NCBI RefSeq assembly: GCF_013315695.1
Contig: NZ_CP054353.1
Direction: 5' to 3' (one strand)
DNA from: Escherichia coli
GTDB lineage: Bacteria > Pseudomonadota > Gammaproteobacteria > Enterobacterales > Enterobacteriaceae
DNA length: 64,000 bases
Shown here: positions 1 to 9,010 of the stretch, piece after piece
How the letters are laid out: every line of letters begins with the position of its first letter
Position numbering within the stretch: the stretch's first letter is position 1
Translations under genes and position numbers: made by a program
Notes under the pieces: model-generated
Database searches by the model: none
Told to the model about the DNA's origin: nothing
Seen by the model: only the letters and a program-made list of their open reading frames with translations

Positions 1-11
1 GAATCCCCCCG

Positions 12-1067
12 TTAACCAATTTTGACGGTAACAAATTTGCGAATATCTGCCGGAACCGGCTGCGGTGCGCTGTGCGTCTGCACGTACTCAATCGCCGGAT
101 CGCCGTCCTCAATCCAGTTTTTCGGGTAAAACATGTTTTGCGTTGCGCCCGTTCTTACCGCTTCCTGTTCCAGGATCGCACCATAGGCCACCAGCCCTTT
201 ATTGTTGGTGTTGCCCAGGACCAGCAAATCAGGCTCAAGGAAATATTTTTCTGTGCCGTCGCTGTCAGTGTATTTGCCGGAATAGACGATAAGGGCCAGA
301 TCACCAAGATAGCCTTTAAAGCTCACCACTTCGCCCAGGTTTTTACATGCCAGCTCTGCGGCGGATTCTGAACCACGGGAGAGATCGTACAGTTCACGGA
401 ATTTTTTAAAGCTGCGTAACATGCGCCATACATCAACGCCCATAATCATGACGTTTGCGGGGCAACCTGCCTGATCTGCGTATAGCTCAATGTCATAGAT
501 TGGGTCGTGTATGTCTTTGTCCTGCTCTGACCATTTTTTACCGTCGGCCTGCTCTATGATGTTTTTTTCCGGTATCTTCCAGTCGATTTCATAGCGCTCT
601 ATGCCTTCGCCCTCAATGATGTTTTTTCCGGTCGTTACCGCATTTACCGCCAGCCATTCCACGCGCGCTTTAATGGCGTTTATCTGGCGGCGCATGTTGC
701 CAGTAATCAGGCGCATACGGCGGTAGGTAGGGTCGTTAAGCTGTGCTGGATCTTCTCCAGCCATGCGCATTATTGTTTTTAATGGATCGATTTCGTGTTT
801 TGGCTTCATGTAGCCAGGGCGAATAATGCTTGTTTCGTACCCTTTATCGCGCTGAACCTGGCTACCCACCATAGGCGAACAAAACGCCGACATAGTGACT
901 TCTTCAATATCCAGGTTATCTAACATGATGTCCTGTGTGTTGAATGTCGCCACGTTCGGGAAAAACAGCGCGGTAAACAGCGGACTGAATTTAAATTCCG
1001 CAATATCCTCGCGATTCAGGTACGCAAAAAGCTGGTTAGTGTTAAGTGCTATTGCTTTTACTGTCAT
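12..1067 (-). CDS. Major capsid protein, lambda gpE family
   Basis: 351-aa ORF; translation shares many conserved blocks with lambda E as I recall it (GY.KPKHE, DP.YRR.R, RSFK, RGS.SE, VYSG.Y, VLGNT, YPKNW..GDPA, QSAP). Start overlaps stop of upstream gene (TAATG); GGGGGTGA RBS. Confidence 0.8.
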   Translation of the reverse strand: MTVKAIALNTNQLFAYLNREDIAEFKFSPLFTALFFPNVATFNTQDIMLDNLDIEEVTMSAFCSPMVGSQVQRDKGYETSIIRPGYMKPKHEIDPLKTIMRMAGEDPAQLNDPTYRRMRLITGNMRRQINAIKARVEWLAVNAVTTGKNIIEGEGIERYEIDWKIPEKNIIEQADGKKWSEQDKDIHDPIYDIELYADQAGCPANVMIMGVDVWRMLRSFKKFRELYDLSRGSESAAELACKNLGEVVSFKGYLGDLALIVYSGKYTDSDGTEKYFLEPDLLVLGNTNNKGLVAYGAILEQEAVRTGATQNMFYPKNWIEDGDPAIEYVQTHSAPQPVPADIRKFVTVKIG

Positions 1068-1273
1068 TATTCACCCCCGTGAACCTGATTCATACCCAGC
1101 GCCGCGCGTAAATAGGCGCGTACCTGCCAGCCTGTTGACGGCTCAACCATCGCCAGCGGATCAAGTCCTGCCGCAATGCCTGCTTTTACGTTCTGCTGGT
1201 GGCGTTCCTTGAGCGCCTTCACGATGTCGGGGCTTATGTACACCGAAACACCGCCTTTTTTCTCTTCAGCCAT
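1067..1273 (-). CDS. Hypothetical small protein (68 aa), first gene of capsid operon
   Basis: ORF with AAGAGGA RBS ~10 nt upstream; translationally coupled to capsid gene; no recognisable family. Confidence 0.45.
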   Translation of the reverse strand: MAEEKKGGVSVYISPDIVKALKERHQQNVKAGIAAGLDPLAMVEPSTGWQVRAYLRAALGMNQVHGGE

Positions 1274-1304
1274 AGTAAGAAATTCCTCTTTGACTTAAAA
1301 AATC

Positions 1305-1358
1305 ATAACTGGATGTTCATCCAGTTATGATTATAATCATGATTGCATTTTGTGCAAT
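1305..1358 (-). promoter_or_regulatory. Promoter/operator of capsid operon: three adjacent palindromes overlapping sigma70-like -35/-10
   Basis: Perfect 24-bp palindrome ATAACTGGATG-TT-CATCCAGTTAT (1305-1328); 14-bp palindrome ATGATTATAATCAT (1327-1340) containing TATAAT on minus strand; ATTGCA-N5-TGCAAT (1342-1358) containing TTGCAC -35 at 16-bp spacing. Confidence 0.5.
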
Positions 1359-1436
1359 GATATTGAGTTGCGTTGCAAATTATGAAATTATTATCCCGAT
1401 CATGTGTGTCAGTGCACCAAAAAACCTCATATGCAA

Positions 1437-1510
1437 AAGCCCGATAAGCCACCTCTGACCTTATCGGGCTTTTTTTGGGCGCAAAAAAGCCGGATTGCTC
1501 CGGCTGTGTG
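1437..1510 (-). terminator. Two tandem hairpin terminators downstream of PerC-like gene
   Basis: GCCCGATAAG...CTTATCGGGC hairpin flanked by A-run and T-run (bidirectional), then AGCCGG-attgct-CCGGCT hairpin followed by T-run on minus strand. Confidence 0.5.
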
Positions 1511-1527
1511 GTGTGGTTCTGGTATTC

Positions 1528-1776
1528 CTACTCTGCTAATTTGCTCAGCCCCATGTCTGCGTAAGTGCGATTTACTGCATTTCTCAGGTCTGCATAGTTC
1601 TCCGTTGGCGGCTCCGGTGGCCTCTGTGCCTTCCTGGAACATTCCAGCCGTCGCATCGTGATGTGATGCCGTTCCTTGTCTGTCTCCACCAGCATCATGA
1701 CTTCACCCCATCGCGCCGCCGCCCTCCGGTAAAATCCTTTCGCTTCGAGTTCTTCCGCTATGCGGTCATGTACCAT
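1528..1776 (-). CDS. PerC-like transcriptional regulator (82 aa)
   Basis: Start chosen at internal ATG with GAGGGGGTGA RBS 10 nt after SSB stop; motif AEELEAKGFYRRAAARW resembles the PerC/Pch family signature from memory; needs profile search. Confidence 0.45.
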   Translation of the reverse strand: MVHDRIAEELEAKGFYRRAAARWGEVMMLVETDKERHHITMRRLECSRKAQRPPEPPTENYADLRNAVNRTYADMGLSKLAE

Positions 1777-1786
1777 CGTCACCCCC

Positions 1787-2197
1787 TCAGAACGGAATAT
1801 CATCACCGTAAGGGTCATCGCCTCCCGCTGGTGGCTGATTACCCTGTGCGCCTGTGGTTTTGCGTCTGTTCCCGCCAGGACGTGCCGCACGGGCACTGAT
1901 TACGCTGTCTGCAATAACCTGATAACCCTGACGCGTCTCCCCGTTCTGTCCGGTCCACTGGCTTACCTGCATCGTGCCGGATACGCTGGCAACGTCGCCT
2001 TTTTGATGTTTAGCCAGGAAGTCGGCCTGCTTACCAAATGCGATGACCGATAGCCATAACGTCGCCTGTCCGTCCTGTGCCTGACTGCATGGCAGTGATA
2101 CCGCCATACGCGCCAGCGTCATCGGTGTGCCCTTGCTGGTCTGTTTTACCTGCGGGTCGTCCACCAGCCGACCGTAAGCCGCTATCTGTGCTGTCAT
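1787..2197 (-). CDS. ssb: Single-stranded DNA-binding protein (SSB)
   Basis: 136-aa ORF, Gly/Pro/Gln-rich C-terminal linker ending in acidic tip ...GDDIPF, the hallmark SSB C-terminus; GGAGAGGTGG RBS; ATGA overlap with upstream gene. Confidence 0.8.
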   Translation of the reverse strand: MTAQIAAYGRLVDDPQVKQTSKGTPMTLARMAVSLPCSQAQDGQATLWLSVIAFGKQADFLAKHQKGDVASVSGTMQVSQWTGQNGETRQGYQVIADSVISARAARPGGNRRKTTGAQGNQPPAGGDDPYGDDIPF

Positions 2198-2445
2198 GAT
2201 TCCACCTCTCCGGTTTTAACGTTGATGGTTGTTACCTGTTCCGCTTCGGCAATCTCCCGTTCTGTCAGCGTGGCAAAGTTTGCCGCCGCCGTGGTCATGA
2301 ATGCGCTTATCAGGTCGGGATGTTCCTTCGCGTATCCTTCCCGCGTGTGGCGGTCTATCGTTCTGATTGCCACCTTTAAGGTGTGCTCAGTCATGTCTAA
2401 CGCTTTATATTTTGGCTCTGTTCTGTCTCTGCGTGTTCTGGTCAT
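2194..2445 (-). CDS. Hypothetical protein (83 aa) between ori and ssb
   Basis: ORF with GAGGTGG RBS before ATG at 2445 (ORF track extends to TTG at 2457); coupled to ssb by ATGA overlap; no recognised family. Confidence 0.45.
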   Translation of the reverse strand: MTRTRRDRTEPKYKALDMTEHTLKVAIRTIDRHTREGYAKEHPDLISAFMTTAAANFATLTEREIAEAEQVTTINVKTGEVES

Positions 2446-2477
2446 TTGCCACCTCAATTTATATATATAGAAACATG

Positions 2478-2795
2478 TGCGGGTTATGCGGGTTATTGGG
2501 TTATCTTAGCGTGCTAACCATTTTTTATCCTTTTATATCAGTATTTTGCAAAACACCCTGTTTATTATTTGCCCACCACGTAACCCGCAAAACGCTCAAA
2601 ATAACCCGCAAACGGGGTTTTTTCTGCGGGTTACGCATGACTGTCCGGTGTTACTTCAGTTATTCGCCTGCGGGTTATAATCGTGCTTTTGCGGGTTATA
2701 AATGCCCTTTTGCGGGTTACGTGCGGGTTATTGGTTTCCTTTATATTCATGCACTTAATACACTTATACACAGGATAACCCGCATAACCCGCAAT
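2478..2795. repeat. Iteron array / replication origin of the island
   Basis: About 11 copies of the 9-mer GCGGGTTA(T/C) in both orientations with AT-rich spacers, including tandem pairs, directly downstream of the primase-helicase gene. Confidence 0.7.
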
Positions 2796-2815
2796 TTTTT
2801 TCCTCACACAGGGGA

Positions 2816-4939
2816 TTAATCTTCATCATCAGGCTGGAACATCAGCACGTAAAAAACATGCTGCTTACCCCCAATCTTGCCCAGCGCCTTTTTTTTGTAT
2901 CGGCGATCGCTTCCCTTCTCCAGCATTCCGGCAGCATCCAGGGCACGCGCAAAATGCGCCGGATTAAATCCCTTCGCTATCTCACTCTCAAACACGTGCG
3001 GGAACGTGTAATAGCGCATCTCGTCATCTTCGTTGCGAATGCTCCCTTTTCTGTATCCGGCAAGCTCTTTAATCGGTAAATCACGCTCATCTGTATTGGG
3101 GTACGGAAGGTAGCGGCTAAACCCAAACGACGACAAAAACGCCTCAGCCTGTTCAACCATCTGTTTAAATTCCCTGTTACCCGTGCCGAACTCCTTCACC
3201 CAGGCATTAAAGTTATGCTGTATCGCGTCGCGGCATTCCTGCACGACCCAGCCAGTTACATGACCGGAAAGCACAAGCGCGGCCTCCAGTATGGCGAAAC
3301 GTTCACCCACGCGGTGGACCTGCTCGCCGTAGCTCTCCGGTATCAGGTTGCGCCACCGTTCGCGGCATTCCCTTACCGTATCCTTTGCCTCCTGCTGGTG
3401 GCCTGCCAGCCATTTAACCCACTCACGACCCGCCGCCCCGTGATTTGCTGTCCAGGCATCCTTTAACGCGTCAGCATGTTCCTTACCGTTGCTGTATTCG
3501 TGAAATTTCGTGGCTTTTTCCATCGGAACGTTAAGCAGTCGGACAAGCTGCCCCGCCTTAACTTTTATCCCCTCACTTTTGAGGAATGTCTCAACGTCCA
3601 TTTCTCCGGTGCTGATTGCCACCGTTCGCCAGTGTTTGATCTCCCTGTTGCCGCCATCCTTCGCCCCCTGCAATTTCCCTGAACCGTTAAACAGCGTATA
3701 AGCAGACGTTGACACTTCCCGCGCATTTCCGGCCTGGCCTATCTCATCCAGTGGTAAAAGCCCGTCATTATGGGCCTCGGCCTCATTGGCAATACCTAAC
3801 GCCGTGCCGTACCAGGTCAGCCGCTGCGCGTCCGGCTCTCCCCATAAACTTGATGCGATGTTCTGCGTGGTGGTCTTACCTGCCGATGACTGTTCGAAAA
3901 GATGCACCCCGAAGCCGTCAGCACCCACAAGGCCAATTAAAGGCGCTGCCAGTGACGTTGCCACACCCAGCATCATTGAGGCATTACCGCCAGCCAGCCG
4001 CGCCACACTCTCGCGCCAGCCCTCCGCCGTACCCGCCACGGAATAACCGTTAATCGCGGCGCTTTTTCCGGTAAACAGGATCGGTTTTTCAGAATCACCA
4101 ATGATCGAACCGTCCGGCATGATGTACGCGCCAAAATGCCAGCCCGTTGTTGTGCTTAACTGCCATTCCTCATGGCTTCCGCTTAACTGCATCCAGTCCG
4201 CCAGGATTGCCCTGTATTTGCCGTTGGTTGTCACGTTCAGCCCGTGATCTTTAAGTAACCGCCAGCCGTCACGGTCGCCGATACCACCACACGGGATCGC
4301 CATTGTGATGACTTCATGATTTGCTAATTTTTTCCAGCGCATGACGCGGTAATGCTCTTTACCGATCGTCCCCGTTCCCAGTAGTTCAAGCGGAGAACAT
4401 AACCACGTCTCAGGCCGGATAATTTCGCCTGACTGCTTATCCACTTTGGGCGTTACCCAGAAAACACCATCGGCGCGACTTTCAACGCGTGGCTTTAATT
4501 CGTCATCGCTATGGCTTCCGGTATCTTTTTTCTTTACCGGAAACTCAATAACCAGACCATCAGAAAGATTCTGCCGCTCACGGGCCAGATATTCGCGCCA
4601 GTTCTCCACCTCCTGACCGTGCATTCCATCAGGGTAAAAATTTGCATCCTGTACGCCTGCCGCCGCCAGCTTCTGACCAATCGCCTTGATCATTACTGGC
4701 TCAAGATGTCCGGCCCTGAATATGCGTACTGATTTTCGGCCTTCCGGCACAATTTGCAGCTTATCCAGTTCGGCAAGTTGTTGCTCTCCAAGCCAGACAG
4801 GAGGCACGTTATCGCCAGCCAGTCGCCCGTCCTGTTCCTGCCACTGTTTCGCATGTGCCCAGGCATCACTACCCGCAAAAATGATGACTTCCGTCATTTT
4901 GTCACGTGGCTGGTGTTTTAAATTTGGCGCTTTTTTCAT
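2816..4939 (-). CDS. Primase-helicase (P4 alpha-like, D5/SF3-type)
   Basis: ~707-aa ORF; Walker A-like SSAGKTTT; size and position (next to iteron ori, downstream of int/alpA) typical of satellite replication proteins. Likely start ATG at 4939 with GGAGAG RBS, overlapping upstream stop (ATGA); ORF track extends to 4954. Confidence 0.75.
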   Translation of the reverse strand: MKKAPNLKHQPRDKMTEVIIFAGSDAWAHAKQWQEQDGRLAGDNVPPVWLGEQQLAELDKLQIVPEGRKSVRIFRAGHLEPVMIKAIGQKLAAAGVQDANFYPDGMHGQEVENWREYLARERQNLSDGLVIEFPVKKKDTGSHSDDELKPRVESRADGVFWVTPKVDKQSGEIIRPETWLCSPLELLGTGTIGKEHYRVMRWKKLANHEVITMAIPCGGIGDRDGWRLLKDHGLNVTTNGKYRAILADWMQLSGSHEEWQLSTTTGWHFGAYIMPDGSIIGDSEKPILFTGKSAAINGYSVAGTAEGWRESVARLAGGNASMMLGVATSLAAPLIGLVGADGFGVHLFEQSSAGKTTTQNIASSLWGEPDAQRLTWYGTALGIANEAEAHNDGLLPLDEIGQAGNAREVSTSAYTLFNGSGKLQGAKDGGNREIKHWRTVAISTGEMDVETFLKSEGIKVKAGQLVRLLNVPMEKATKFHEYSNGKEHADALKDAWTANHGAAGREWVKWLAGHQQEAKDTVRECRERWRNLIPESYGEQVHRVGERFAILEAALVLSGHVTGWVVQECRDAIQHNFNAWVKEFGTGNREFKQMVEQAEAFLSSFGFSRYLPYPNTDERDLPIKELAGYRKGSIRNEDDEMRYYTFPHVFESEIAKGFNPAHFARALDAAGMLEKGSDRRYKKKALGKIGGKQHVFYVLMFQPDDED

Positions 4940-5235
4940 TTCTGCTCTCTCCACGCGGCAATCATGTTTTTCAGTTCCTGTAGTTTTTTATCCACATCCA
5001 CACGTGACACATGGTTATTTCTGGAAGTCGGGATTTCCCGCCTGAATCTGCTAATAAAGATCTCCACGTTCAGCGAACTATGAAATGAATAGCCATCACG
5101 AATAAAATACACACGGTCAAACATCAGTTCTTTTACCGTTACTCTGTTGCCGTTCTTATCCAGATAAATAGCGCCGGGGATAATTTTGGGGTGTGCATAA
5201 CCGCTGGCAGTCAAGCCAGATAAATATGTTCTCAT
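4936..5235 (-). CDS. Hypothetical protein (99 aa), low-GC cargo
   Basis: ORF translationally coupled to primase gene (ATGA); local GC ~30-38% versus ~50% for neighbours; no recognised domain. Confidence 0.5.
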   Translation of the reverse strand: MRTYLSGLTASGYAHPKIIPGAIYLDKNGNRVTVKELMFDRVYFIRDGYSFHSSLNVEIFISRFRREIPTSRNNHVSRVDVDKKLQELKNMIAAWREQK

Positions 5236-5241
5236 GATTAT

Positions 5242-5562
5242 TTATCCCCGATTTGAATCAGTATTCGCTTTCTTTATAGCATTTAATGCATTTGTGGCAT
5301 TTTCAATGGTGCACCGTAACGAAATATCAAACTGCCCAAGCATTGCCAGTAACAAACCGATATTACCCATATCAATGCGCATGGCCTTTTCGTCATATTC
5401 CTCATTTTCTGACGCATACCACATCAGGCTACCAATTGACGCAATACCCATTGATATATTGTCAGTAGCCCCATCCGCAGCGGAATAAACTTTTTTAGCA
5501 ATATCATGCTCACAGTTAAAATGCGGATTAATCAGGTACTGGTAATTGGTCATGTCAGGCAT
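5242..5562 (-). CDS. Hypothetical protein (106 aa), low-GC cargo
   Basis: ORF starting ATGCCTGA-overlapped with upstream 67-aa gene; low GC; no recognised domain. Confidence 0.5.
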   Translation of the reverse strand: MPDMTNYQYLINPHFNCEHDIAKKVYSAADGATDNISMGIASIGSLMWYASENEEYDEKAMRIDMGNIGLLLAMLGQFDISLRCTIENATNALNAIKKANTDSNRG

Positions 5563-5758
5563 GGCACACCCCCTGACGAATACGGGCGGCGAATACCATC
5601 ACGCAGCCAGCCGGGGATTGCTGGCGTGCTTCCTGTTCGCTGCTGGCCTCAATGGTAATCACGCGCGGTTGTGCCGTGCTCAGGGCGATAAAACGCCAGA
5701 TGTATTTATTCAGGTTGTGCGAGTCCCGCCCTTGCGGGTGTGTGGTATGATTTAACAT
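5555..5758 (-). CDS. Small conserved satellite protein (67 aa), possibly Icd-like
   Basis: 3' portion of a long spurious ORF; ATG at 5758 preceded by GAGG; native-like GC; YIWRF...FAARIR pattern vaguely matches Icd-like annotations from memory (unverified). Confidence 0.4.
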   Translation of the reverse strand: MLNHTTHPQGRDSHNLNKYIWRFIALSTAQPRVITIEASSEQEARQQSPAGCVMVFAARIRQGVCHA

Positions 5759-5839
5759 AGCTACCTCGATACTGTTGCTATCGTTGGTTGTTAGACGCCC
5801 TGCATGTGTTGCGAGCACTGCGGGGCGTTGCTCTTTCAG

Positions 5840-5885
5840 GTGTATTTCACCTTTGCTTTTTAATTTACTCACTGGTGAAATACAC
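5840..5885. promoter_or_regulatory. Perfect 12-bp inverted repeat in divergent promoter region (candidate operator)
   Basis: GTGTATTTCACC (5840-5851) and GGTGAAATACAC (5874-5885) separated by a 22-nt loop, followed by T-rich tract; lies between divergently oriented 67-aa gene and RHH gene. Confidence 0.45.
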
Positions 5886-5951
5886 TTCAAGCCTTTTTTT
5901 ATCATTTTTTTTGCGTATACTGACATACACCAATTTTTAGGAGATCCAGAA

Positions 5952-6131
5952 ATGGCAACTGGTGCAAAGAACGCAAAATCACAAATGACAACTGTCAGAA
6001 TCCCACATGAAGTAATGGATGATATTGAGCAACTTAAAGAACCTGGCGAAAGTACCGCTGGTTTTTTAGTTACTGCCGCAAAAGGCGAGATCAAACGCCG
6101 CCAGCGCCGCAAGGCCAAAGAATCAGAATAA
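5952..6131 (+). CDS. Ribbon-helix-helix-like small DNA-binding protein (59 aa), candidate repressor
   Basis: ATG at 5952 preceded by AGGAGAT RBS; N-terminal region (TTVRIPHEVMDDIEQLK) has RHH/CopG-like character; basic C-terminal tail. Confidence 0.45.
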   Translation: MATGAKNAKSQMTTVRIPHEVMDDIEQLKEPGESTAGFLVTAAKGEIKRRQRRKAKESE

Positions 6132-6188
6132 TCACTATCAGCGCCGTGGCGTGAGGTACTCCGGCGCATTGCTTTACAGGTCAGTACT

Positions 6189-6398
6189 ATGAGCAAAAAA
6201 CACCGATCAGCAGATGAGATTTTTGCAGAACAACGAAGATTGCTTTTGCAAAGTATCATTTCACGCCAGCAAGAGAAGGCGCGAGCTAAACAAATGCCAC
6301 CAAATACAGAACCAGCGCCTACAAGATTTGCGCTTGATGATTTTCTCGATAAACACCCCAGGGTAATGAAAGCAAACAAAAACCGCCCACCAGCCTGA
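6189..6398 (+). CDS. Hypothetical protein (69 aa)
   Basis: ORF downstream of RHH gene on same strand, followed by a strong terminator; weak RBS; no recognised family. Confidence 0.35.
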   Translation: MSKKHRSADEIFAEQRRLLLQSIISRQQEKARAKQMPPNTEPAPTRFALDDFLDKHPRVMKANKNRPPA

Positions 6399-6441
6399 TA
6401 GCGGCTATCATCCCCGTGCTTATGTTTAGTGTTTCCAAACT

Positions 6442-6469
6442 GGCGACCTCCCAAGGTCGCCTTTTTTTT
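6442..6469 (+). terminator. Rho-independent terminator
   Basis: GGCGACCT-ccca-AGGTCGCC hairpin followed by T8. Confidence 0.65.
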
Positions 6470-6488
6470 ATGTGCCATTGTCACCACC

Positions 6489-6785
6489 TCAAGCGGCCTT
6501 GCCTGAATTAATGCGTTCGCGGTTTTTGACCCACGCCACAACCTCAGACTTAACCCAGCCAACAGAACGACCGCCGAGACTGATACGGGAGGGGAAGCGG
6601 CCCTGCTTTTCCATCTCGTAACGAGTTGTGCGGCAAACGCCTGTTAGCTCTCTGCATTCTTTTTCGCGGATTACGCGATCTTCATTTATTTCACGCATAC
6701 AAAAACCTACATAAAAATTACGTATATAAACTTTTCTCTTAGCTGTAGATATATGAGATCGGATATTACTTAGATTCTTTTTCAC
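6489..6785 (-). CDS. alpA: AlpA/Vis-family phage transcriptional regulator / excisionase-like
   Basis: C-terminal part matches AlpA-type HTH pattern (ECRELTGVCRTTRYEMEKQGRFP...GGRSVGWVKSEVVAWV). Start uncertain: GTG at 6785 or ATG at 6698. Confidence 0.6.
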   Translation of the reverse strand: MKKNLSNIRSHISTAKRKVYIRNFYVGFCMREINEDRVIREKECRELTGVCRTTRYEMEKQGRFPSRISLGGRSVGWVKSEVVAWVKNRERINSGKAA

Positions 6786-7107
6786 CTCTTAAATTAAAAA
6801 CACAACCATGCTAAAGGCTTTGTTCGCTAAGGTTCGTAGAAGCTCGTTAGTGTTTAAAATCGTGTCACGAGTTTTTAAGCGACGCAACAAAAAATGTCGT
6901 TATTTGGCATGACACCTGAATTACCTCATTAAAAACAAATAGATAAACCATCAGGTGTTGGAACAATCAAGAAACAGAGAATAAGAACTAAGAAGAAGAC
7001 ATTTCAAATTTTTTCAATACTTGACACATATAAATCGTCGATATTTGCCGATATTCGACGATTTATTTTAGAGGGCCATTTTTCGCAAGAAAAACAGCCG
7101 TAATTTG

Positions 7108-8346
7108 TCAAGAATTTTGGGAGTAAATTCGCGGGGTCATAACAACGATTTTTTCATCATTGTTCTGGAGAAGCTCGAGACGCTCAACCCATAGATTAAG
7201 AGCGTCACGTTTTGCATCGAGATAACGGGAGTGATTATAGACTCGTTGCATTCCTGGCAACTGGTGCGCGGTTAGCTGCTCCACTACATGAGGATCCACG
7301 CCTAAATCGTTCAGCATCGTTGTAAACGTGTGCCGGATGTCGTGCAACGTCCAGGGGGCTTGATTAATGCGTCTGTGTGCCGTTCTTCCGTACTCTGATA
7401 CAGATGATTGCCCTTTCAGTTCTCCGAGTAATAAGCCCGTGTGTCGGTTCTGCTCCACCAGCTTCGTTACGAACGGCAAGATCGCTTCCGGTATTGGCCT
7501 GAATATTGCTACCTTCGTTTTGCTGTGTTCTTTCGGCACAGTCCAGAGCATTTCTTTAAAATCCCATTCCTGGACCTCAGAGCGTCTTAGCTCAGTGGTA
7601 CGGCATCCGAAGACAATCAGGAGGCGAATCAGGGCGCTGTAGTACGGTGTGTAAATTTTTTCATCCAGGGCGCGTAGTAATTCCCCAAGCTCCTTGTTTG
7701 TTAGTACGCGCTCGCTTATTTCTGCTTTTTTCCCAACATCACCTACAACCATATCATCTAGAACGTTGGTAATTGCGTAGCGTCGTTTGCGGCAGTACTT
7801 AAGCGCCTGCTTGCATACCTGTAACAAAAATCCTGCTGATACCGGATTACGCATAGCAAGCTGATCAAAACAGGTCAGCCAGTGGCGTAGCTCGCATTTT
7901 TCCAGCGGCATAGCACCAATATGGCTGATTATGTGTGTATTGATCCGGCTTTTCAGAGATTCGTAATCTGTGCGCTTTTCCTTCGCGTACGATTCAAGCC
8001 AGTAAGTGAGCGCTTCCTTAACCGTAACAGGTGATAACGCTTCCTGTACGGTGTGATTAAGCTCATGGCGTGGATTTTTACCCTCAGCAAGCCAGGCGCG
8101 ACACTGCGACGCTTTTTCCCTGGCTGCTTTCAGGCTCAAATCTGGATAATTTCCCAGCCTCAGACGTTCAGGGGCTACCTTCCTGCCTGTTCCGGCCCTG
8201 TAAGTGAAATACCAGGTTAACAGGCCATTGGTTGAATGCCTTACGCTAAGGTTGCCACCATCATTAAAAAAGGTGTTTTTTGTGGTTGGTGATCCGCTTA
8301 ATTTTCGTAAAAGAGTGTCGCTAAGTCTATGAATTGCCCTGCTCAT
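7108..8346 (-). CDS. int: Tyrosine-type site-specific integrase
   Basis: 412-aa ORF; C-terminal catalytic region with HDIRHT and ...VYNHSRY (R-H-R-Y family pattern); located at island edge next to host gene. Confidence 0.85.
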   Translation of the reverse strand: MSRAIHRLSDTLLRKLSGSPTTKNTFFNDGGNLSVRHSTNGLLTWYFTYRAGTGRKVAPERLRLGNYPDLSLKAAREKASQCRAWLAEGKNPRHELNHTVQEALSPVTVKEALTYWLESYAKEKRTDYESLKSRINTHIISHIGAMPLEKCELRHWLTCFDQLAMRNPVSAGFLLQVCKQALKYCRKRRYAITNVLDDMVVGDVGKKAEISERVLTNKELGELLRALDEKIYTPYYSALIRLLIVFGCRTTELRRSEVQEWDFKEMLWTVPKEHSKTKVAIFRPIPEAILPFVTKLVEQNRHTGLLLGELKGQSSVSEYGRTAHRRINQAPWTLHDIRHTFTTMLNDLGVDPHVVEQLTAHQLPGMQRVYNHSRYLDAKRDALNLWVERLELLQNNDEKIVVMTPRIYSQNS

Positions 8347-8401
8347 GTTTCGAATTTCCGGTCATCAAAATTAACTACACCATTGACTACACCGAGCATC
8401 G

Positions 8402-8434
8402 TACAAGGGCGAACTGTGACGAACAAGGGCGAAC
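8402..8434. repeat. Direct repeats (ACAAGGGCGAAC x2) in int-proximal attachment region
   Basis: Two copies of a 12-mer 8 bp apart, plus CGAACAC repeats nearby, between int start and cspD; candidate integrase arm-type sites. Confidence 0.3.
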
Positions 8435-8750
8435 AAGAAAAACGAAATTATCCTTTATAATCATAGAAATAAATGAGATACCTACACCATGACGAACACC
8501 CACGAACACTAACTGATAAATAACTATCATCTATCGTTGGCATCAGCGACATCTGTCACATTCCTGTCAATAGCGTTAACTGCTTCAAATTTTTGATTCA
8601 TACCTGCCCCCTGGCCCCTGTCAAATGCTTGACGGCTCGCCCTAATTCTCTAAATTGTATTTCTAGAGTTGGCGAGGTTTTGAACAGCCCCCTCTCTGAC
8701 CCCGGTTTATTCCATCTTACTTGTATAAGATTTGCGAAGGATGTCGAAGC

Positions 8751-8975
8751 ATGGAAAAGGGTACTGTTAAGTGGTTCAACAATGCCAAAGGGTTTGGTTT
8801 CATCTGCCCTGAAGGCGGCGGCGAAGATATTTTCGCTCATTATTCCACCATTCAGATGGATGGTTACAGAACGCTAAAAGCTGGACAATCCGTTCAGTTT
8901 GATGTCCACCAGGGGCCAAAAGGCAATCACGCCAGTGTTATTGTGCCCGTCGAAGTAGAAGCGGCAGTCGCATAG
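8751..8975 (+). CDS. cspD: Stationary-phase cold-shock-domain protein CspD
   Basis: 74-aa translation MEKGTVKWFNNAKGFGFI... recognised as CspD; ORF track begins upstream at an earlier in-frame ATG. Confidence 0.9.
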   Translation: MEKGTVKWFNNAKGFGFICPEGGGEDIFAHYSTIQMDGYRTLKAGQSVQFDVHQGPKGNHASVIVPVEVEAAVA

Positions 8976-9010
8976 CTCTTCTGTCTCATTGTGTACATCC
9001 TAAAGGCAAA

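Follow-up and report, generated by a model that had tools for sequence, protein, structure and literature searches.

Two small genes before the replicase of an Escherichia coli phage satellite: a divergent RgdR allele and its neighbour in a variable slot

What are two small open reading frames (ORFs) of low guanine-plus-cytosine (GC) content doing directly before the primase-helicase gene of a phage satellite in Escherichia coli? The question is raised by a 64,000-nucleotide stretch of contig NZ_CP054353.1 (assembly GCF_013315695.1), which is called the window below. A preliminary description of this DNA, made from the letters alone, placed two ORFs of 106 and 99 amino acids (aa) between a 67-aa gene and the primase-helicase gene, and both are there at the coordinates it gave. 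They are called orf106 and orf99 here. That description went on to propose a separately acquired two-gene cassette, an undescribed module for manipulating a helper phage or for resisting other phages.

The follow-up analysis points elsewhere. The element is a phage-inducible chromosomal island (PICI), whose architecture is already known, and the pair is not a new defence module. The explanation that fits the whole best is that both ORFs are genes of the PICI early operon, that orf99 is an allele of the PICI gene rgdR, that orf106 is an ORF of a variable slot, and that the two are exchanged between islands as a haplotype block. We consider this explanation, taken as a whole, to be probably correct.

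orf99 as an allele of rgdR

The preliminary description saw no recognisable domains in either protein. For orf99 this does not hold, as it matches Pfam PF13973 (DUF4222) over residues 16-67 with an i-Evalue of 1e-16, matches phrog_285 at 1e-21, and is annotated in RefSeq as a DUF4222 protein. The one characterised DUF4222 protein is RgdR (ECs1581) from the island OI-51 of E. coli O157:H7. BLASTP aligns orf99 with RgdR at 34% identity over 99/99 residues, gap-free, with an E value of 1e-16, and the O157 gene used for the alignment (locus L002, 8137-8436) lies at the corresponding position of its own island. orf99 is basic, with an isoelectric point (pI) of 10.0, and all DUF4222 proteins examined have a pI of about 10.

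RgdR is a 99-aa protein with a pI of 10.09 that binds DNA non-specifically in electrophoretic mobility shift assays (PMC3378721). It activates LEE1, part of the enterocyte effacement locus (LEE), and type III secretion (T3S), and it represses motility (PMC3378721; review PMC10877973). Its RGD motif has been implicated in T3S activation, C1493 of strain CFT073 has the same activity as RgdR, and a natural R20C variant in strain ED1a is inactive (PMC3378721). In orf99, residues 20-22 are P20-G21-A22 where RgdR has RGD, so the LEE and motility activity should not be assumed for orf99.

Position in the island is the second line of evidence. According to Fillol-Salom et al. (PMC6092414), every E. 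coli PICI that they analysed encodes RgdR. In 10/10 RefSeq islands a DUF4222 gene of 95-100 aa lies directly upstream of the replicase, and among 80 loci from IMG/VR the ATGA junction between rgdR and the replicase is present in every readable locus, i.e. all but the truncated L102. The replicase behind rgdR varies between a DUF927 type, primases of 582-606 aa and a RepA-family helicase. Because a DUF4222 gene stands directly before the replicase throughout these 90 islands, orf99 is one allele of a core gene and not extra cargo. Judged by its sequence and its place, orf99 is a divergent allele of RgdR, a core PICI gene, and the earlier view of it as undescribed cargo is dropped.

DUF4222 ORFs also occur outside PICIs. 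The core of O157 RgdR (residues 24-70) matched 46 phage records by tblastn; the orf106 and orf99 proteins of the window gave no match by tblastn against 50,697 phage records. Short DUF4222 ORFs of 59-73 aa were found in SfIV, vB_EcoS-733R5, two Klebsiella phages and the e14 prophage of K-12, directly upstream of an O-like or primosomal replication gene whose first 11 nt they overlap. The e14 ORF matches the Pfam family at 9.5e-19. Since DUF4222 precedes unrelated kinds of initiator in phages and satellites, we infer that its primary role may be tied to the replication or early module.

The e14 ORF deserves a description of its own. This 59-aa ORF is unannotated and lies at L026 5002-5181, equivalent to NC_000913.3:1204001-1204180, in another frame of the 3' half of ymfM, a gene annotated as 'cell division inhibitor YmfM', and it overlaps the start of the replication gene ymfN/oweE. 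Comparable DUF4222 ORFs lie at L016 3438-3659 and L017 3480-3659. When the overlap is compared between e14 and phage 733R5, 25 of the 34 nucleotide differences fall at third positions of the DUF4222 frame, and protein identity is 86% in the DUF4222 frame versus 47% in the ymfM frame, so the DUF4222 frame is the one under selection. The study that reported filamentation by ymfM cloned the ymfM ORF, and a text search of it found no frame control. The attribution of that phenotype to the ymfM frame may deserve a check.

The structure of orf99 was predicted with AlphaFold2 from a 26-sequence alignment, with a predicted local distance difference test score (pLDDT) of 77 and about 90 in the core. 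In the model, no order is predicted for residues 1-19, a four-stranded barrel with its short helix takes up residues 20-66, and a linker leads from there to a C-terminal helix at 78-98. orf99 is thus predicted to combine a basic barrel of the Tudor/SH3-like kind with that helix. A profile of the orf99 family gave chance-level matches only against PDB sequences. Altogether orf99 would most likely be a nucleic-acid-associated accessory factor of the replication or early module, which may bind DNA, RNA polymerase or the replisome, and the ATGA overlap should keep its production in step with that of the replicase. Effects on host transcription such as those of O157 RgdR (LEE1 up, motility down) would then be a by-product of its activity and not its primary purpose.

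The early operon and the standing of the two genes

The features of the locus are listed here by their positions in the window.

7108-8346, minus strand: tyrosine integrase gene (ORF), at the island end adjoining cspD
6489-6698, minus strand: AlpA-like helix-turn-helix regulator gene (ORF), heading the unidirectional operon; counterparts in related islands are annotated as helix-turn-helix or AlpA
5555-5758, minus strand: Icd-like 67-aa gene (NCBIfam NF033153 at 1.8e-19; phrog_6196)
5242-5562, minus strand: orf106, 106 aa (ORF; phrog_15327), between icd and rgdR
4936-5235, minus strand: orf99, 99 aa (ORF), RgdR family (DUF4222), with an ATGA overlap with the replicase start
5204-5219, no strand: 16-bp palindrome CTGGCTTnAnTGCCAG, CTGGC-N6-GCCAG, in orf99 codons 6-11
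2816-4939, minus strand: PICI replicase, a DUF927-type primase-helicase of 707 aa (phrog_1139 DNA primase at 1e-189)
2475-2795, no strand: putative replication origin, iterons directly 3' of the replicase gene

The leftmost 8.3 kb of the window belong to an E. coli PICI of the EcCICFT073/EcCIEDL933 type, of which they form the integrase-proximal part. The island adjoins cspD, macB and macA, all of its genes are on the minus strand, and its left end falls outside the window. The marks by which Gram-negative PICIs are recognised (PMC6092414) are all found, namely int, alpA and pri-rep in the same orientation and then an iteron origin 3' of pri. The preliminary description was therefore right to call the element a phage satellite. 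[quoted passage not shown] Related islands have the same gene order, at the same and at other attachment sites, and other islands are annotated at the identical insertion site yljB/cspD/macB. EcCICFT073 and the O157 island OI-51/CP-933C are among the Gram-negative PICIs for which this architecture is described, and an iteron origin 3' of the replicase belongs to the published layout as well (PMC6092414). Here the iteron TGCGGGTTA(T/C) is repeated at least 13 times in the origin region, in both orientations and to either side of an AT-rich stretch at about 2500-2560.

The single minus-strand promoter-like site in 2400-7200 is at 7007-6978, upstream of alpA. Between icd and pri no minus-strand promoter-like or terminator-like site was found, which fits a single early operon. 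In EcCICFT073, AlpA activates the downstream island genes and helper phages switch AlpA on (PMC6092414). By analogy, induction by a helper phage would raise AlpA, and AlpA would switch on the early operon including orf106 and orf99. A scan of window positions 1-9000 with Rfam returned no family at gathering score.

From alpA to icd (5760-6490) there is also a plus-strand ORF resembling YlcI/YnfO, which lies within 5775-6131. The corresponding DNA of related islands (L001, L012-L015, L022-L024) carries, besides, assorted pseudogene fragments, annotated as ash-family or Icd-like. A minus-strand ORF of 335 aa reported by the ORF finder at 5555-6562 is probably no gene except for its last 67 codons.

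According to the preliminary description the ORFs were chained by overlapping stop and start codons. Such overlaps exist on either side of the pair: the icd stop overlaps the orf106 start by 8 nt (ATGCCTGA) and orf99 overlaps the primase start by 4 nt (ATGA). The two ORFs themselves are separated by a 6-nt spacer (TAA-ATAATC-ATG), with no overlap. A purine-rich, Shine-Dalgarno-like stretch precedes 4/4 starts.

The low GC content is real but was overstated. It is 41.1% over 4936-5562 (40.2% in orf106 and 42.7% in orf99), compared with 57.4% in icd, 53.5% in the primase and a mean of 51.1% for the window, which puts the pair in the lowest 1% of all 627-bp segments. The genes thus stand at 40-43% each, not at the 30-38% first given, and 32% is reached by just one 100-bp segment, at the junction of orf106 and orf99.

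Both ORFs are real genes under purifying selection. Full-length copies in the IMG/VR loci are all intact (75/75 for orf106 and 71/71 for orf99), and the pooled pairwise ratio of nonsynonymous to synonymous substitution rates (dN/dS) in those loci is 0.34 for orf106 and 0.31 for orf99; a smaller RefSeq sample gave 0.30 and 0.57. Third codon positions are the most variable in both ORFs. The doubt voiced at the outset, that the ORFs might be untranslated and unconserved, is contradicted by these intact copies and by a dN/dS of about 0.3.

orf106, the variable slot and the exchanged block

For orf106 the claim of no recognisable domain stands in part. Searches of Pfam, NCBIfam and PADLOC gave no match, but the protein belongs to phrog_15327, of which it makes up the whole (match at 8e-71). 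An exhaustive HMMER search of 1.84 billion representative proteins returned only 19 matches, among them relatives of about 100 aa at 28-42% identity. A ten-member alignment of the family has six invariant columns (L10, G44, M47, Y56, G69 and N88), and I43, A50, D64 and M65 are nearly invariant. Two relatives could be located on contigs (L005 and L008). Both are in islands with an integrase and occupy the same slot, following small early ORFs and preceding, by 1-3 genes, either the replicase or the last large ORF on the contig. The ORFs downstream of these two relatives (122 aa in L005, 96 aa and 65 aa in L008) were tried as DUF4222 members and gave no alignment with that family. More generally, homologues of the window ORFs at 25-42% identity have the same length and position. 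Closer to home, orf106 is present at full length and 95-99% identity in 473 of 5426 complete E. coli genomes (8.7%). A literature search by RefSeq protein accessions found no paper.

AlphaFold2 predicts orf106 (pLDDT 81) to be a two-helix hairpin, with helices at 19-51 and 58-105. The protein is acidic, with a pI of 4.6. A Foldseek search of PDB with the model returned nothing significant (best E 0.93), and a profile of the orf106 family gave chance-level matches only against PDB sequences. In AFDB50 the model matched only uncharacterised proteins of about 100 aa, of which the named ones are mostly from Enterobacterales and some are labelled phage protein. Three candidate identities were tried and set aside. 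A membrane hairpin does not fit a maximum Kyte-Doolittle 19-residue mean of 1.46, below the usual threshold of 1.6. A WXG100/Esx-like hairpin has no significant fold match and would need a WxG at the predicted turn (52-57), where there is none. The 1222-aa tetratricopeptide repeat protein P0058 owes its score to 14 copies of a 39-residue repeat ('YDEK...GNLGLIL..LGQ'), and its similarity to orf106 is treated as compositional or convergent. We suggest that orf106 would be a soluble helical hairpin, probably working by binding a protein partner, whether one of the host, one of the helper phage or RgdR itself. orf106 may act by manipulating the helper or the host.

The slot between icd and rgdR is variable, as the preliminary description had supposed: in related islands unrelated families replace each other before rgdR. 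The slot holds 1-4 small ORFs, from phrog_340, 2512 (5146 plus 24341), 2196, 1478 and 3672, and at least seven unrelated small-ORF PHROG families alternate in it, orf106 being one. For two of the other families no shared ancestry with orf106 was seen, as hhalign probabilities for the orf106 family stayed below 1% with both the phrog_2196-like and the phrog_24341-like alignment. The slot ORFs are 61-154 aa long, single, and have no enzymatic or sensor domains; 9/11 of the others examined are acidic, with a pI of 4.4-5.2. Their GC content is 37-52%, and 37-46% for the ORF adjoining rgdR. Low GC is therefore common to this slot across the island family and does not mark a recent acquisition, contrary to what had been read from it.

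In five islands, the ORFs directly upstream of rgdR, though of different families, share their C-terminal tripeptide, H-T-G and then E or K (L002 8442-8675, L004 5104-5337, L010 3907-4164, L011 3882-4106 and L013 3277-3504). In 4/5 of them the underlying DNA also provides the Shine-Dalgarno-like sequence of rgdR, so that the slot has a conserved junction on its downstream side.

How far do orf106 and orf99 belong together, for instance as an obligate two-gene module of the toxin-antitoxin kind, whose partners always co-occur and co-vary? In the IMG/VR loci with the window's orf99 allele and readable upstream DNA, orf106 is directly upstream in 74/74. In those loci the upstream icd allele ranges from 45% to 99% identity, and the downstream replicase is mostly a 605-aa primase, with the DUF927 type in about 16. 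In L014, L103 and L104, orf106 is paired with an rgdR allele whose identity to orf99 is only 36-37%, and the distant orf106 homologues in L005 and L008 precede genes that are not DUF4222. The two-gene cassette first described thus survives as a low-GC block that travels together, but it is separable. It is a real, linked haplotype block made of one slot gene and one core-gene allele.

The borders of the block recur. Homology to the window ends repeatedly about 30 nt into icd (about 5590), upstream of icd (about 5800-5830) and about 370 nt into the replicase gene (about 4570), the last in 57 loci; in L103 and L104 it ends at 5201. This last end coincides with the palindrome in rgdR, which thus lies at a recombination breakpoint between rgdR alleles. 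The palindrome has a 5-bp stem and a 6-nt loop and occurs once in the window, where 0.03 copies are expected. It is present in 15/15 PICI loci (L001-L004, L010-L015 and L021-L025) and in 79/80 IMG/VR loci, although the proteins of the rgdR alleles share just about 30% identity. Across eight alleles no third codon position within it varies, whereas other conserved codons, such as that of Gly21, do, and this invariance points to a constraint at the level of DNA or RNA. Covariation in the hairpin is impossible because the stem is invariant. The palindrome could be an operator, an RNA hairpin or a linker for module exchange.

On the other side of rgdR, the different replicase types (DUF927, 582-606-aa primases and RepA-family helicase) have a near-identical N-terminal segment, MK.APNLK.QP..K.TEVIIFAGSDAW.HAK.W.E, which corresponds to window positions 4570-4939, or the first 123 codons or so, and was compared in L002, L004, L011, L013 and L015. 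The DUF927 label of the window's own replicase comes from RefSeq, which so annotates the identical replicase of strain SF-468 (100% in pairwise alignment). With this common segment and the end of homology behind it, the N-terminal domain of the replicase behaves like an exchangeable module of its own next to rgdR. We propose that islands would exchange the block by recombination at conserved junctions, namely the 3' end of icd, the palindrome that occupies codons 6-11 of rgdR, and a point some 370 nt inside the replicase gene.

Readings weighed and systems compared

Several observations weigh against the explanation preferred here. orf99 is just 34% identical to RgdR, and PGA replaces the functionally implicated RGD. 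The replication-linked role of orf99 is argued from synteny alone. The rgdR alleles and the replicase types are shuffled relative to each other, which gives no sign that rgdR has co-evolved with a particular replicase, and all replicases have the same N-terminal segment whichever rgdR allele precedes them. A cloned pri-ori segment of EcCICFT073 supported plasmid maintenance (PMC6092414); if that clone was without rgdR, rgdR is not essential for replication. Finally, the orf106 hairpin has no informative structural neighbour, the best PDB match having an E value of 0.9.

One could instead take orf99 to be mainly a regulator of host virulence and motility like O157 RgdR, an accessory gene that benefits the host bacterium. 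The published activities of RgdR and C1493 on LEE1, T3S and motility favour this (PMC3378721), and RgdR is counted with the accessory or virulence genes in the PICI paper (PMC6092414). However, the gene is in every island, including those of LEE-negative strains, is always coupled to a replicase, and has short homologues before the replication genes of lambdoid phages; orf99 itself has neither R20 nor RGD, and the R20C variant of ED1a is inactive (PMC3378721). We regard this reading as unlikely.

Slightly less likely is a joint reading that assigns a part to every element of the locus. The RgdR family would be Tudor-like factors of satellites and lambdoid phages, working primarily in the replication or early module, where they might dock on RNA polymerase, on the replisome or on nucleoid proteins. 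The slot would be a hotspot at which small tuners, acidic hairpin or helical proteins, diversify; they would adjust RgdR activity or target the host or helper. orf106 and RgdR type A, the allele never found without orf106, would be co-adapted, and the palindrome would be a cis element (operator or RNA hairpin) that doubles as an exchange point.

A narrower proposal makes orf106 the dedicated partner of RgdR type A, in which case it would control the binding of RgdR to DNA or RNA polymerase as an anti-activator, a chaperone or a modulator. The linkage in all 74 loci agrees with it, as do the complementary charges of an acidic hairpin and a basic Tudor-like protein, the small acidic ORF next to rgdR in 6/7 other tabulated islands, and the anti-activator TraM among the weak fold neighbours of orf106. 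But orf106 also occurs with an rgdR allele 36% identical, its distant homologues are followed by genes that are not DUF4222 (L005, L008), the adjacent ORF in L012 is basic, the TraM fold match is not significant, and adjacency alone accounts for the linkage. This proposal seems doubtful to us.

We give still less credence to the original idea, that orf106 and orf99 form one separately acquired module which manipulates the helper or blocks other phages. Its attractions are the tight linkage (74/74 loci), the distinctly low GC of the block, the pairing of one acidic with one basic protein, the location in a variable slot, an operon expected to fire upon helper induction, and the defence hotspots known from satellites (PMC9122126). 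Against this, orf99 substitutes for a core gene and adds none, orf106 is also found with another rgdR allele (L014, L103, L104), linkage is to be expected in any case of genes separated by just 6 nt, low GC at this place is seen in all related islands, and neither protein has an enzymatic or sensor domain. PADLOC-DB models gave no match for orf106, and for orf99 only Cmr7 at E 0.02 and 13 bits, which is not credible. Nothing in PADLOC connects either protein with a known defence system, and nothing here supports a new one.

The last alternative, that one or both ORFs are non-coding chance frames in an AT-rich spacer, draws on the short ORFs, the AT-rich DNA and the annotation of orf106 as only hypothetical, and it is effectively refuted by the 75/75 and 71/71 intact copies with a dN/dS of about 0.3, the variation that is highest at third codon positions in both ORFs, the homologues at 25-42% identity that keep length and position, the Pfam family of orf99 and the confident AlphaFold2 cores.

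The preferred explanation, an RgdR allele and a slot ORF in a PICI early operon, bears mostly on RgdR. It has hitherto been treated as a virulence regulator of enterohaemorrhagic E. coli, yet it is a universal replicase-coupled gene in E. coli PICIs. This coupling, together with the short homologues before phage replication genes, suggests that RgdR serves first of all the cycle of the mobile element itself. If true, the effects of RgdR on LEE and motility would be read differently. The small-ORF stretch before rgdR, for its part, is an uncharted set of satellite proteins.

Among known systems, the defence hotspots of phage satellites, described for P4-like elements by Rousset et al. 2022 (PMC9122126), resemble the icd-rgdR slot in being a variable satellite position where unrelated genes replace each other. 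They differ in that the slot is inside a replication operon and its genes have no PADLOC matches.

The left operon of P4 is similar to the window in having small ORFs between an immunity region and a satellite primase gene. The P4 genes before alpha are epsilon, ORF151 and ORF106 (DUF5375), and the gene next to alpha is ORF106, which we take to be cnr. Cnr is said, in work by Terzano from 1994 and Ziegelin from 1997, to directly precede alpha and to regulate replication through it. The earlier comparison of the pair with the epsilon/orf151 slot is apt only in a loose, positional sense: homology of orf106 or orf99 to epsilon, ORF151 or ORF106 was rejected because no BLASTP alignment was better than E 1, and the window replicase has no BLASTP match to alpha at E<=1e-3. 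The closest positional analogue of orf99 in P4 is ORF106/cnr, not epsilon or ORF151. P4 ORF106 is DUF5375 and not DUF4222, and the element in the window is a PICI.

The predicted barrel of orf99 resembles, at the level of fold, the Tudor-like domains of UvrD/PcrA (C-terminal), CarD/CdnL (N-terminal) and Spt5/NusG (KOW). Several Tudor-like domains of these families bind RNA polymerase. None has a sequence relationship to orf99, for which Pfam gives just DUF4222. The resemblance is weak evidence because small barrels are very common, but since several of the resembling domains bind RNA polymerase, a mechanism directed at that enzyme is a lead for the pleiotropy of RgdR. In our view the phenotypes published for RgdR are also like those of H-NS loss, so a mechanism aimed at H-NS or the nucleoid may be considered too.

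The DUF4222 ORFs of e14 and lambdoid phages share the Pfam domain of orf99 and stand, like it, directly before a replication initiator gene that they overlap. They consist of the barrel only, without the N-terminal extension, the palindrome and the C-terminal helix, and most are unannotated, concealed in another frame of ymfM-like ORFs.

The nearest relatives are RgdR of O157:H7 (ECs1581, OI-51/CP-933C) and C1493 of EcCICFT073. The RgdR gene differs from orf99 in its GC content (49-51% versus 43%) and in its upstream neighbour, a 77-aa ORF of phrog_2196 where orf99 has orf106. In other respects RgdR and C1493 are like orf99: they are 99-aa DUF4222 proteins with a pI of about 10, their genes immediately precede that of the island replicase, which they overlap by ATGA, and they have in common with it the N-terminal peptide SGLTASG and the palindrome embedded in its codons.

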